Part shown: positions 24,206 through 28,204 of the stretch, one piece after another
Layout of the letters: every line of letters begins with the position of its first letter
Numbering within the stretch: position 1 is the first letter of the stretch
Assembly (NCBI GenBank): GCA_965279305.1
Contig: OZ257143.1
Span: 1,740,001-1,772,000 of the forward strand
DNA: 32,000 nt
Direction of reading: 5' to 3'
DNA from: Gammaproteobacteria bacterium
Lineage (GTDB): Bacteria; Pseudomonadota; Gammaproteobacteria; JBIOEC01
Position numbers and translations under genes: made by a program
The notes under the pieces: generated by a model
Database searches by the model: none
The model's input: only the letters and a program-made list of their open reading frames with translations
Told to the model about the DNA's origin: nothing

Positions 24206-27200
24206 ATGAATCTTATGATTTTGCTACTAAAAACGATAGAAAATGCTCCCGTTTCTCAATGGGAAAAGTTCCAAGGCTTTTTTCAAAAATGGCAGGACAA
24301 GTCCGTTCCTAAGGAATTTAGTCAATATCTCCGTGAGTTTTTAATATCGTTAAACATCCCAGCTGAAGACCCAAGTGAAAATATAGCCCAGCTATTTGAT
24401 ACTAATTCTGAACCAAAAGAAGAACTATTAGACGCGCTGCATATATTGGCCTTTTCATCTAACCCGCATGTTCGCTTATGGAGCCGGATCGCTTCATATG
24501 TATTAACCCCTGATGCCTTTGCTCAAAAGCCAAACGAATTACCTCCATTCACTGATGAAAATGAATGGAACAGCCTTTACGAAGAATATTTTTCGGTCTG
24601 GCCTGCAGCCTTTGCCGCGGGTCTTTTAACCTATCAATATACAGTTGTAGATGAAAATGACCAAAGTCAAACCACCTATAAATTCAACGATGCCAGTGCT
24701 GTACTGAAACATAGAAATATTTTAATTTCACGATATCCAGCATCAGCTCCATACATAGCTGATGAAGATGGCTCACTCGCTATTTTGGAAAGAGCGAAGC
24801 TTGATAAGAAGAATCCTCCATTGCTTGAAAACTCAAGTAATATTTCTAGAGTATGTCCTGATATATACGAAAATATTGAAACAGAGTTCGTCTCTAGCCA
24901 ATCAATGATTATCCACTTAATGCTACTTCACGTAGGACTCAATCAAGGTGGTTCAGGTAGCGCAGGCGGCTCAGAAGAGCGGGCTACGGTTCCTGCACAA
25001 CGAGCTACCGAAAACTTTTTTAAGTTAGTCGAACACACAACAGATGACCAAAAAAAAACATTACAAACCACCGGAATTGAAACCATTTATATCCGTTTAA
25101 GAAAACCTGCTAGCGATTTGTCTGCTTGTGTAAACATGAATGCCGGTATTATAGATGAAATATTTAAAGATGATAAAAAACTAAAAAAACTTTTCCAGCT
25201 TAAAGTTTCAAAAAAGAAAAAAGAAAAAAAAGAACAGCCCCAAGAAAAACACGAAGGCGACCATACATTAATCGAAAAAATAAAAGATACTCAACGCCAC
25301 TGTGCTTATGAAAATAATAAAACTTTAAGAAATGGTGATATTGAAACCATTAGAGATTTATTATTATCCGTGCAACATGAAGAATCCCCCACTAAAAATC
25401 TATACAATCAACTAGGTGAGCATGAAATAACCGATTCATTTTTACTTTCCAGTATAGGAGCAGAAATAGAAAGAATGGGTTTTCAGTTATGGATCAAATC
25501 CATATCCGATTTTCATCTTTTAGCTAGTTTATTTAAAAATGATGAGGTTCTTTTAACAAAAATAAAAAAATGGACCTTGTCTAATCTGAAATATACCATC
25601 ACATCAAAAAATGATTTGATCGGCTTTATTATTTCAGCTAAAGACCCTAAGTTTGTCCAAAGATTTTTGAGAAAAAACCCTATTGACAAATCGATATCTA
25701 TTTCAACACACCCTGATCTAGAAGCTCCTTTCAATGATTATTCAAAAGAATTTAGACTATTGATATGGGACTCATTAAATCTTGACGACGAATTTATATC
25801 ACAAATAATCGAAGGCAATAAAGAAAGGTTTTTTGCCTTCGCATATTTTTTATTACAAAGAAATGATGAGCCTAAGAGTTTTGAAACAACATCAAGCCAA
25901 ATAATCCCATTTCCACCGATTCTTCTGGAACCAGAAAAAGCCCAAAATCTTGAAGTTATAAAAAAAGAAGTTAAAAACACAGTAGTCCACTTTCTTTCAG
26001 AAATGGACGAAGCTATTATAAACTCCTTTGATTTTATGAAAGAAACCGCCAGGCAAAATATTTTAGCAAGATCTATAAGAAATAATACAAACCCAACAGA
26101 ACAAGAAATTGAAGAAGAAATTGGAAATATGTTTTTTTACACAGGAGAAAACGACGCTATTCAAAAAAAACCCAAATTTTCTCTTAATTTCAAGGAAATA
26201 TCAGAAACTATTAAAATAGATGGGACAGAAGTAAAAATAAAATTTTCACAAAAACAAAAAGATAAACTGCGTGACTTTTATTACAAAAAATTTGAAATGA
26301 CTTATGTTAGACTCATAAAATCCATATCAGATGAAGATAAGTCTTTAAAACAAAAATTAACAGAATGCCCACCTGAGTATCCTTTGTCTGACACAGCAAG
26401 AATGGATTTGTTTTTACATGCTACAATAACAAATCAAGATGATTATCTAAGTGATGCAATAACAGAAAACTTCAATAAAACTGTTTTTATTGAAAGATTT
26501 ATTCACCGTTTTTTTAATGCTCCTTTAACCAATGAAACATTAATCCTTCTCAATACACAGTTACGCAAACTACTGACCTCCCCAAATCATCCATTGCGGA
26601 TCCCTAGAGGGTACTTTTTTACTGCTCAAAATGGAGTGACAAAAAGTCTAAAAACATTAATAGTGGCCATATTGGAAAATATTATTGAAAAAATAGAGGC
26701 TCCGACAGGATCGGACGAACCTTATATAATCCAAAGAGCAAGACTTGTACATCTATTGGGCATCTTATCGGTCTTTTTAGAATCCATAAAACTGTCTAAT
26801 CCAACGGATTATGCTGATATCAAAAAAAGCATTCGTGATTTTAGAAAATCTCCTAAAATTGCCTCAATTCTCAGTTATGAAGAATTTAGCTCAGACGAAG
26901 AAGACAATTCAGCTGCTGTAGTTCAACCTGTAGTTGCTCAACCTGTAGCTGTGCAACCTGTAGCTGTGCAACCTGTAGCTGTGCAACCTGTAGCTGTGCA
27001 ACCTGTAGCTGTGCAACCTGTAGCTGTGCAACCTGTAGCTGTGCAACCTGTAGCTGTGCAACCTGTAGCTGTGCAACCTGTAGCTGTGCAACCTGTAGCT
27101 GTGCAACCTGTAGCTGTGCAACCTGTAGCTGTGCAACCTGTAGCTGTGCAACCTGTAGCTGTGCAACCTGTAGCTGTGCAACCTGTAGCTGTGCAACCTG

Positions 27201-28204
27201 TAGCTGTGCAACCTGTAGTTGTTGAACGCGAAAGAACCGGAATGGATGAATATTTACTAGTCTCATTCACACAAGAAAATGACTACCTATATGATGAAAT
27301 TATCGAAAACTTTGATAAAAATAGTTATATTGAAAGTTTTATTCATCATTTTTTCAATGCTCCTTTGAGCAATGAAACATTAGATCTTCTCAATACACAG
27401 CTAGAAAGACTACTGACCATTCCAAATCATCCATTGCGGATCCCAAGAGGACGTTTTTTAATCGCTCAAAATGGAATCACAAAAAGTCTAAAACGACTAA
27501 TAACGGCTGTATTGGAAAATATCAGTAAAAAAATAGAGGATACCCAATCTTCATCCGATTCATCAGTGAATCACATATTAAAATTATTAGAAATTTTATC
27601 CACGTTTTTAGAATCTATAAAGCGCTCTAACCCAACAGATTATTCAGAGATCCAAAAAAGCATCACTGGCTTTAAAGAATCTGCTAGAATCGCATCAATT
27701 CTACGCTCGCACTTTAAATCAGAGGTAGATAATGAAAATGGATTATCTGCTCAATATATTATAGATTCCATAGATCCTTTTATAGCCTATCCAAGCGACT
27801 CTACTAGTTACAGCACAAGAGCAGAATTAAGAAGAGCAGCTTATTCGGTTATATTAAGCCATTTAAGCCAAGTTCTAACTTCCCCATCTAATCAAATGTT
27901 TCTAGAAGATTTTCTTGCTCATGATGCCCCTTTCAATAAAGAAAGCCAATTTATTATAAAAAAAATCGCTTCCCTCCCCGAGCAAGATTTTAAGAGAGTT
28001 ATTCGATATCTAGAGGATTTAAGAAACTCTGATTTATTTAGAGTACATTTAGGATATGTTTCCAGAGTAGTTTCTCTATCTCCAACGACTACTTCTCAAA
28101 GGCTAGGCAGCCTAATAACAGGGTTACGCAGAGTACATGATCAATATCATACTTCTAGGCCTCTTCCGCCTGTTCAGGCCCAAACCCTCATCAGTGCTCC
28201 ATAA
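24206..28204 (+). CDS. large hypothetical protein (paralog A) with a duplicated helical module, a (VAVQP)18 linker and the family C-terminal module
   Basis: 1332-aa uninterrupted ORF in AT-rich DNA. It has an internal ~157-aa duplication and 18 identical 15-bp repeats. The C-terminal module is shared with the next two ORFs. There is no signal peptide or TM segment. A lysine-rich patch (KVSKKKKEKKEQPQEK) is present. Confidence 0.8.
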   Translation: MNLMILLLKTIENAPVSQWEKFQGFFQKWQDKSVPKEFSQYLREFLISLNIPAEDPSENIAQLFDTNSEPKEELLDALHILAFSSNPHVRLWSRIASYVLTPDAFAQKPNELPPFTDENEWNSLYEEYFSVWPAAFAAGLLTYQYTVVDENDQSQTTYKFNDASAVLKHRNILISRYPASAPYIADEDGSLAILERAKLDKKNPPLLENSSNISRVCPDIYENIETEFVSSQSMIIHLMLLHVGLNQGGSGSAGGSEERATVPAQRATENFFKLVEHTTDDQKKTLQTTGIETIYIRLRKPASDLSACVNMNAGIIDEIFKDDKKLKKLFQLKVSKKKKEKKEQPQEKHEGDHTLIEKIKDTQRHCAYENNKTLRNGDIETIRDLLLSVQHEESPTKNLYNQLGEHEITDSFLLSSIGAEIERMGFQLWIKSISDFHLLASLFKNDEVLLTKIKKWTLSNLKYTITSKNDLIGFIISAKDPKFVQRFLRKNPIDKSISISTHPDLEAPFNDYSKEFRLLIWDSLNLDDEFISQIIEGNKERFFAFAYFLLQRNDEPKSFETTSSQIIPFPPILLEPEKAQNLEVIKKEVKNTVVHFLSEMDEAIINSFDFMKETARQNILARSIRNNTNPTEQEIEEEIGNMFFYTGENDAIQKKPKFSLNFKEISETIKIDGTEVKIKFSQKQKDKLRDFYYKKFEMTYVRLIKSISDEDKSLKQKLTECPPEYPLSDTARMDLFLHATITNQDDYLSDAITENFNKTVFIERFIHRFFNAPLTNETLILLNTQLRKLLTSPNHPLRIPRGYFFTAQNGVTKSLKTLIVAILENIIEKIEAPTGSDEPYIIQRARLVHLLGILSVFLESIKLSNPTDYADIKKSIRDFRKSPKIASILSYEEFSSDEEDNSAAVVQPVVAQPVAVQPVAVQPVAVQPVAVQPVAVQPVAVQPVAVQPVAVQPVAVQPVAVQPVAVQPVAVQPVAVQPVAVQPVAVQPVAVQPVAVQPVAVQPVVVERERTGMDEYLLVSFTQENDYLYDEIIENFDKNSYIESFIHHFFNAPLSNETLDLLNTQLERLLTIPNHPLRIPRGRFLIAQNGITKSLKRLITAVLENISKKIEDTQSSSDSSVNHILKLLEILSTFLESIKRSNPTDYSEIQKSITGFKESARIASILRSHFKSEVDNENGLSAQYIIDSIDPFIAYPSDSTSYSTRAELRRAAYSVILSHLSQVLTSPSNQMFLEDFLAHDAPFNKESQFIIKKIASLPEQDFKRVIRYLEDLRNSDLFRVHLGYVSRVVSLSPTTTSQRLGSLITGLRRVHDQYHTSRPLPPVQAQTLISAP
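26399..26876 (+). repeat. intragenic duplication, copy 1 (~478 bp)
   Basis: Encodes RMDLFLHATITNQDDYLSDAITENFNKTVFIERFIHRFFNAPLTNETL...HPLRIPRGYFFTAQNGVTKSLKTL...LESIKLSNPTDYADIKKSI...KIASIL. Long near-identical DNA runs are shared with copy 2, e.g. ccaaatcatccattgcggatccc and gctcaaaatgga. Confidence 0.85.
26918..27223 (+). repeat. in-frame tandem repeat: 18 identical 15-bp units (gtagctgtgcaacct = VAVQP) plus degenerate flanking units
   Basis: Identical units run from 26945 to 27214 (270 bp = 18 x 15). Degenerate units gtagttcaacct and gtagttgctcaacct precede them, and gtagttgtt follows. Confidence 0.98.
27239..27706 (+). repeat. intragenic duplication, copy 2 (~468 bp)
   Basis: Encodes GMDEYLLVSFTQENDYLYDEIIENFDKNSYIESFIHHFFNAPLSNETL...HPLRIPRGRFLIAQNGITKSLKRL...LESIKRSNPTDYSEIQKSI...RIASIL. 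It is offset 840 bp from copy 1. Confidence 0.85.

Follow-up and report, generated by a model that had tools for sequence, protein, structure and literature searches.

An in-frame array of eighteen identical 15-bp units, a candidate coding minisatellite, between duplicated modules of an orphan gammaproteobacterial protein

Perfect in-frame minisatellites in hypothetical proteins of bacteria are a well-known phenomenon. The one described here, (VAVQP)18, lies in a 32-kb window of a gammaproteobacterial genome (the whole stretch of DNA that was analysed, 32,000 nucleotides of contig OZ257143.1), inside a gene hereafter called A that encodes an uncharacterised orphan protein. Among comparable systems, ORF663 of Chlamydia pecorum resembles it in having 15-nt in-frame units within a hypothetical protein of an intracellular bacterium, where tens of copies of a 15-mer coding repeat (13-50, differing between strains) are placed between conserved N- and C-terminal parts; incA of the same species carries APA/AGA repeats (PMC4118914). 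However, the two proteins have no sequence relationship and belong to different phyla, and the VAVQP array differs in that it separates two duplicated modules and is known from a single genome. In Legionella pneumophila, all 26 intragenic repeats analysed have unit lengths divisible by 3, polymorphic repeats are significantly more internally identical (so that high internal identity predicts polymorphism), and the repeats are found in surface or secreted, host-interaction proteins such as FimV (lpg1299/Lpms35) and Lcl (lpg2644/Lpms31) (PMC2639597). At some Legionella loci, copy-number distributions are non-random among isolates from different hosts or niches (PMC2639597). The VAVQP unit is likewise divisible by 3, but its array is 100% internally identical whereas the L. 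pneumophila arrays are mostly 65-92% identical, and the proteins are unrelated. In Escherichia coli O157:H7, variable-number tandem repeats (VNTRs) mutate at rates of 4.4e-5 to 1.8e-3 per generation, with higher rates for alleles of more than 13 units (PMC3777172).

Phase-variable contingency loci share the same mutational mechanism, slipped-strand mispairing. These loci switch genes on and off through frameshifts or promoter spacing, whereas the 15-bp VAVQP unit is in frame and inside the open reading frame (ORF) of gene A, about 2.7 kb from the start codon, where only length can change; a contingency locus was therefore rejected. A likeness of another kind is offered by the linkers between lipoyl domains in the E2 component of 2-oxo-acid dehydrogenases, which are Ala/Pro-rich and 20-30 residues long. 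Like these linkers, the VAVQP tract is rich in Pro, Ala, Val and Gln, is predicted to be extended and flexible, and is situated between tandemly duplicated domains. The two are not homologous, and the E2 linkers are not perfect DNA repeats and belong to a conserved enzyme.

We consider it likely that the tract is a candidate slipped-strand coding VNTR, either recently expanded or kept homogenised, that is tolerated as a disordered spacer between two protein modules. The array and its immediate surroundings comprise the following features, given in window coordinates:

24206..28204, + strand: gene A, encoding the repeat-bearing orphan protein of 1332 aa (from the ORF list)
26918..26944, + strand: two degenerate leading units, GTAGTTCAACCT (VVQP) and GTAGTTGCTCAACCT (VVAQP) (from sequence and translation)
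26945..27214, + strand: perfect array (VAVQP)18 with unit GTAGCTGTGCAACCT (from regular expression, Tandem Repeats Finder and translation)
27215..27223, + strand: partial trailing unit GTAGTTGTT (VVV) (from sequence and translation)
26886-27266, 26909-27211 and 26938-27270, - strand: three overlapping ORFs of 126, 100 and 110 aa (from the ORF list)

An exact regular-expression search returned a single run of 18 head-to-tail copies of GTAGCTGTGCAACCT with 0 substitutions. This is what the first-pass annotation had described, namely 18 identical in-frame units with degenerate edges, and the regular expression, Tandem Repeats Finder (TRF) and the translation agree on it exactly. TRF delimited the repeat at 26924-27222 (period 15, 19.9 copies, 98% matches) with a score of 570, by far the strongest array in the window, the runner-up scoring 154. 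Additional copies of GTAGCTGTGCAACCT beyond the array were absent from both strands of the window at up to 2 mismatches. An array of 270 nt of perfect 15-mers is not attributable to chance. Translated in the frame of gene A, the tract reads VVQP-VVAQP-(VAVQP)18-VVV, 102 residues corresponding to aa 905-1006 of the 1332-aa protein, with Pro at each fifth position, beta-branched Val and no Cys. The unit is thus a multiple of 3 in frame within a real ORF, flanked by constrained homologous modules, and the 18 perfect copies with degenerate edge units make the array a strong VNTR candidate.

All three minus frames are open over the repeat, as (YRLHS)n, (TGCTA)n and (QLQVA)n. Because of this, three minus-strand ORFs cover the tract. 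These exist as mechanical ORFs only, artefacts of a reverse complement free of stop codons, in agreement with the earlier judgement that they are spurious. The accompanying statement that all six frames are open proved wrong, since the +2 frame reads TAG once in each unit and only five frames are open.

The absence of substitutions in the 270 nt of the array contrasts with the divergence of its surroundings. Synonymous divergence (dS) amounts to 0.70 between the two flanking modules and to 0.38 between the pyrD gene of the window and that of the closest relative. Because of this difference, the array is either much younger than its flanks or continually homogenised, which bears out the recent expansion or ongoing homogenisation proposed in the first reading of the sequence. 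A single variant unit was amplified and the edge units GTAGTTCAACCT and GTAGTTGCTCAACCT differ from it, as expected if an array grows from its interior by slippage. The guanine-plus-cytosine (GC) content of the array (52-53%, against 32-37% across the remainder of gene A) is consistent with an origin by amplification from a single short seed. As single strands, the array folds more weakly than shuffled controls (z = +2.3 and +1.7), and hairpin-driven instability was rejected because the hairpin potential is nothing out of the ordinary; a simple misalignment of strands, or unequal exchange between sisters, would therefore suffice.

The tract was also said to separate two duplicated modules, and the protein comparisons established this. 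Gene A is organized as follows:

24206..25555, + strand: N-terminal domain of about 450 aa (from exhaustive phmmer, alignment and AlphaFold2)
26402..26872, + strand: module copy 1, aa 733-889, directly upstream of the repeat (from BLASTP and alignment with the neighbouring paralogs B and C and with P0006, the homolog of B)
27242..27703, + strand: module copy 2, aa 1013-1166, directly downstream of the repeat (from BLASTP and alignment)
27704..28201, + strand: second half of the family unit, aa 1167-1332, with the Pro-rich tail PLPPVQAQTLISAP at its end (from BLASTP and alignment)

The two module copies, of about 155 aa each and in the same frame, are 61% identical (BLASTP, E 1e-62). Their homology begins at 'MD' (aa 733 and aa 1013), and on either side about 10 residues at most separate it from the tract. 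With a dS of 0.70 and a ratio of non-synonymous to synonymous divergence (dN/dS) of 0.38, the comparison of the copies indicates that the duplication is old and that both copies are under purifying selection. In the multiple alignment, in which P0006 was included, each module is the counterpart of the first half of a unit of about 350 aa common to B and C, and the C-terminal region of A (aa 1066-1332) matches B (23% identity, E 4e-7) and C (E 6e-6) by BLASTP. From the alignment with B and C, aa 1013-1332 of A therefore constitute one complete unit and copy 1 an extra half-unit. The repeat sits at the junction between the two.

Gene A is a real protein-coding gene, because its modules are in frame and constrained, its N-terminal domain has two independent distant homologs, B and C are paralogs of its C-terminal unit, and the orthologs of B and C in a relative are themselves under constraint (dN/dS 0.46 and 0.28). 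The distant homologs, P0004 (E 4e-12) and P0005 (E 3e-6), were recovered by an exhaustive phmmer search of aa 1-904 against 1.84 billion representatives, in which the module had no match. The motif IHLM(L/I)L..GL..G.....G..E (aa ~230-260 of A) is invariant in A, P0004 and P0005, which are otherwise 23-29% identical, and the N-terminal domain with this motif belongs to no known family. P0004 (828 aa; L002 2873-5359) occupies an odd orphan site, where it interrupts a standard rnfA-B-C-D-G operon between rnfC and rnfD. The contig with P0005 also holds a gene of the Legionella_OMP family, which is a weak hint towards Legionellales.

Searches with gene A itself pointed to a narrow distribution. The full-length query against 5.8 billion clusters returned only gene A, low-complexity words having probably saturated the candidate list, and a query devoid of the repeat and of poly-K again returned only gene A. 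When 15 billion proteins are clustered at 90%, each of A, B and C is a cluster of its own, and the family they form appears from these comparisons to be nearly orphan and lineage-restricted. Neither two repeat units nor a profile of the A/B/C family matched the metagenome contig collection, and a megablast against plasmids gave no match. Among the contig matches listed there was only one, a 15-nt repeat CCCTGTTGCGTGCAG at the contig end of a Methanimicrococcus metagenome-assembled genome (L001 1-150); it was rejected as a homolog, being unrelated and a compositional coincidence.

Pfam matches on gene A were compositional and restricted to the repeat (Keratin_B2_2, Keratin_B2 and extensin). High-sulfur keratin B2 (PF13885/PF01500) was rejected, given that PF13885 reached 30 bits against a cut-off of 27 on the repeat only, a Cys-free tract of Q-P-V composition. 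Pentapeptide-repeat proteins (PF00805, A(D/N)LXX) were absent from the Pfam matches at E<=0.01, and NCBIfam, PHROGs and PADLOC gave no meaningful match for the gene. Sequence and profile searches of the PDB retrieved nothing significant, the best match being a designed armadillo-repeat protein (E 0.004), and a match to SNAP-25 (E>0.1) was dismissed as noise. AlphaFold2 (AF2) models were obtained for aa 1-485 and aa 721-1332, with a mean predicted local distance difference test (pLDDT) score of 52 and 47.5, respectively; the alignments were very shallow, and the quality of the two models does not permit fold comparison. Outside the tract both contain only helices; the tract itself appears as coil (pLDDT 22-33), with no pentapeptide-type structure, in the low-confidence model of aa 721-1332.

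These observations suggest the following history. A short Pro/Val/Gln-rich seed would have been present at the junction of the older duplication of the ~155-aa helical module, and one 15-bp variant unit would have been amplified from it by slipped-strand mispairing or unequal sister-strand exchange. With a unit of five codons, gain or loss of copies would keep the frame and lengthen or shorten the protein by multiples of 5 residues. The encoded segment is most probably a tether, unstructured and rather extended, that connects module copy 1 to the complete C-terminal unit, with an estimated contour length of about 30 nm when fully extended, or about 1.5 nm per unit. We propose that the array persists because the linker tolerates any length. 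Slippage as the mechanism, the behaviour of the tract as a disordered spacer and its present-day length polymorphism are what we infer from these data. Accordingly, of the spacer role assigned by the first-pass annotation, the position between the duplicated modules stands, whereas the function is plausible on the grounds of composition, position and the coil model.

Several points weigh against this reading. No second strain was present among the collections searched, and the only close relative found is devoid of gene A at the locus. None of the L. pneumophila repeats changed over three months of passage (Coil et al., PMC2639597). The perfect array, at 270 bp, is longer than common short reads, and the copy number given here is as assembled. 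Furthermore, with AF2 models of such low confidence the term disordered derives mostly from composition, and the VAVQP peptide may have a specific function.

The comparison with the relative mentioned above concerns the following features next to gene A:

23968..24042, - strand: tRNA-Val(GAC), left edge of the gene A presence/absence polymorphism (from ARAGORN; Rfam tRNA 69 bits)
28294..30039, + strand: paralog B, 581 aa (from BLASTP against C; ortholog P0006)
30064..31137, + strand: paralog C, 357 aa, the minimal family unit (from BLASTP and alignment; ortholog on contig L003)

BLASTP aligns B with C over 351 aa at 40% identity (E 4e-74). Each member of the family has a short Pro-rich tail, and the C-termini of A, B and C, read from the sequences, are rich in Pro, Thr, Ala and Ser and have no Glu block; a Glu block and small polar residues are the features of the C-terminal translocation signal of type IVB (Dot/Icm) effectors. 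The one homolog of B, P0006 (49-51% identical), is encoded on contig L003 (Logan SRR28248352). The pyrD gene of the window and that of L003 are 97% identical as proteins and 92% as DNA (dS 0.38, dN 0.014, dN/dS 0.04), which indicates that L003 derives from a congeneric organism. In a comparison spanning 28294-31137 of the window and 238-2975 of L003, C and its ortholog are 78-79% identical (dN 0.115, dN/dS 0.28), whereas B and P0006 are 51% identical (dN 0.39, dS 0.86, dN/dS 0.46). That the dS of B exceeds the 0.38 of pyrD hints at gene conversion or paralog replacement.

L003 starts inside the same tRNA-Val, its positions 1-41 being 100% identical to the 5' part of the tRNA and its flank. About 190 nt from the tRNA, the B ortholog follows directly (L003 1-240 compared with 23968-28300 of the window), and tblastn of gene A against L003 gave no match. 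The left part of the L003 spacer matches the spacer between the tRNA and A in the window, while its last ~75 nt match the A-B spacer, in a stretch that includes a conserved promoter-like segment. As judged from this alignment, one congener has gene A (4 kb) and the other lacks it at the orthologous site. By the dS values, the duplication of the module in A (0.70) seems to predate the split of the species (0.38), and for this reason a loss or relocation of gene A in the relative seems somewhat more likely than a recent birth. Classical island integration at tRNA-Val was rejected, as gene A lies on the 5' side and not on the 3' side of the tRNA. A and B are probably separate transcription units. 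A short palindrome, GCTAGGTACTAGC, is found at 28210-28222, just past the stop codon of gene A; the segment after it contains TTGACA and is conserved in L003, where it likewise precedes B.

The main rival to a slippage-prone spacer is neutral expansion in a dispensable linker, in which case the tract would be functionless mutational debris tolerated by a fast-turnover, possibly decaying lineage-specific gene. The absence of gene A from the orthologous site in the congener would fit this explanation, as would the fast evolution of the family (51% identity for B and 79% for C, against 97% for pyrD), the lack of any family, domain or structure match for gene A in our searches, and an array GC content (52%) foreign to the gene. 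On the other hand, the 4-kb ORF is intact, the frame is kept over the array, and the dN/dS of 0.38 applies to both modules. We deem debris unlikely on balance; it departs from the spacer explanation solely in whether the length of the tether matters.

An assembly artefact, that is, a shorter or heterogeneous repeat that was expanded, collapsed or over-polished to uniformity, appears very improbable to us. The protein is known from a single contig and a perfect repeat of this length exceeds typical short reads. However, the source contig measures 1,869,759 bp, which reflects high contiguity of the assembly, the two flanks are in frame with each other, and genuine arrays typically have degenerate units at both edges, as this one does. 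Such an artefact could affect how many units there are, but the array itself would not arise from it. Least credible is that the VAVQP units are functional motifs, either a multivalent ligand of host proteins or a self-assembling five-residue solenoid, for although the five-residue periodicity matches pentapeptide-repeat beta-helices, proline-rich repeats often mediate protein-protein contacts and the whole family ends in Pro-rich tails, Pfam gave no pentapeptide-repeat match but only the keratin and extensin compositional ones, PxxP and PPxY motifs are absent from the tract by reading of its sequence (prolines being spaced i, i+5), AF2 gives no structure, and the perfect identity of the DNA points to a mutational rather than a selective origin of the copies.

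The remainder of the window combines housekeeping and orphan genes. The genes thrS, infC, rplT, pheS, pheT and a HU/IHF-family gene follow an order typical of gammaproteobacteria, and the polynucleotide phosphorylase (PNPase) is closest to the structures from E. coli and Coxiella burnetii. The window has a GC content of 39%, and the source genome measures ~1.87 Mb. PheT (17566-19593, - strand; 675 aa) has its B3_4 domain from aa 95 and the tRNA-binding domain PF01588 is not listed for it; its N-terminus appears shorter than that of typical bacterial PheT. A second in-frame tandem repeat, imperfect (periods 21 and 33, 73-93% matches), was observed at 9171-9352, where it encodes heptad-like units of the LDHKIDM type in a 181-aa coiled-coil protein (9043-9588, - strand) with weak CCDC90-like/DUF7310 matches and a hydrophobic C-terminus. 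The 693-aa protein encoded at 6594-8675 (+ strand) contains two P-loop NTPase regions (around aa 286-326 and 510-633) with partial DnaA/IstB/STAND-like matches, and no full-length family assignment was found for it. Four ORFs encoding 230-430 aa (150-1295, 13096-14397, 15398-16195 and 16472-17167) had no Pfam match; the first three had no NCBIfam match either, the fourth being outside that scan. The genome thus seems rich in orphan proteins interspersed among housekeeping genes.

If the copy number of the array varies, this organism, of which a single genome is known, could conveniently be typed with it at high resolution, and the variants would amount to a natural experiment on how long the linker of a modular protein can be. 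As a guess, the context of the locus would suit host-interaction or secreted proteins of an intracellular bacterium. Carried further, A, B and C could form a so far undescribed family, rapidly diversifying, of secreted proteins that act in host interaction in a rarely sampled, intracellular, Legionellales-like gammaproteobacterium, with (VAVQP)n as an evolvable 'molecular ruler', a proposal that we regard as a long shot. Were it true, copy number would tune the reach from the half-unit to the complete unit and would vary between strains or hosts. The locus is more informative than the array, as it holds a tRNA-Val-adjacent orphan family of three paralogs in which gene A is present in one congener and absent from the other, and in which divergence at the non-synonymous sites of B and C is 10 to 30 times as fast as in pyrD next to them. 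Because of the presence or absence of A and the fast divergence of B and C, these genes are candidates for a role in host interaction.

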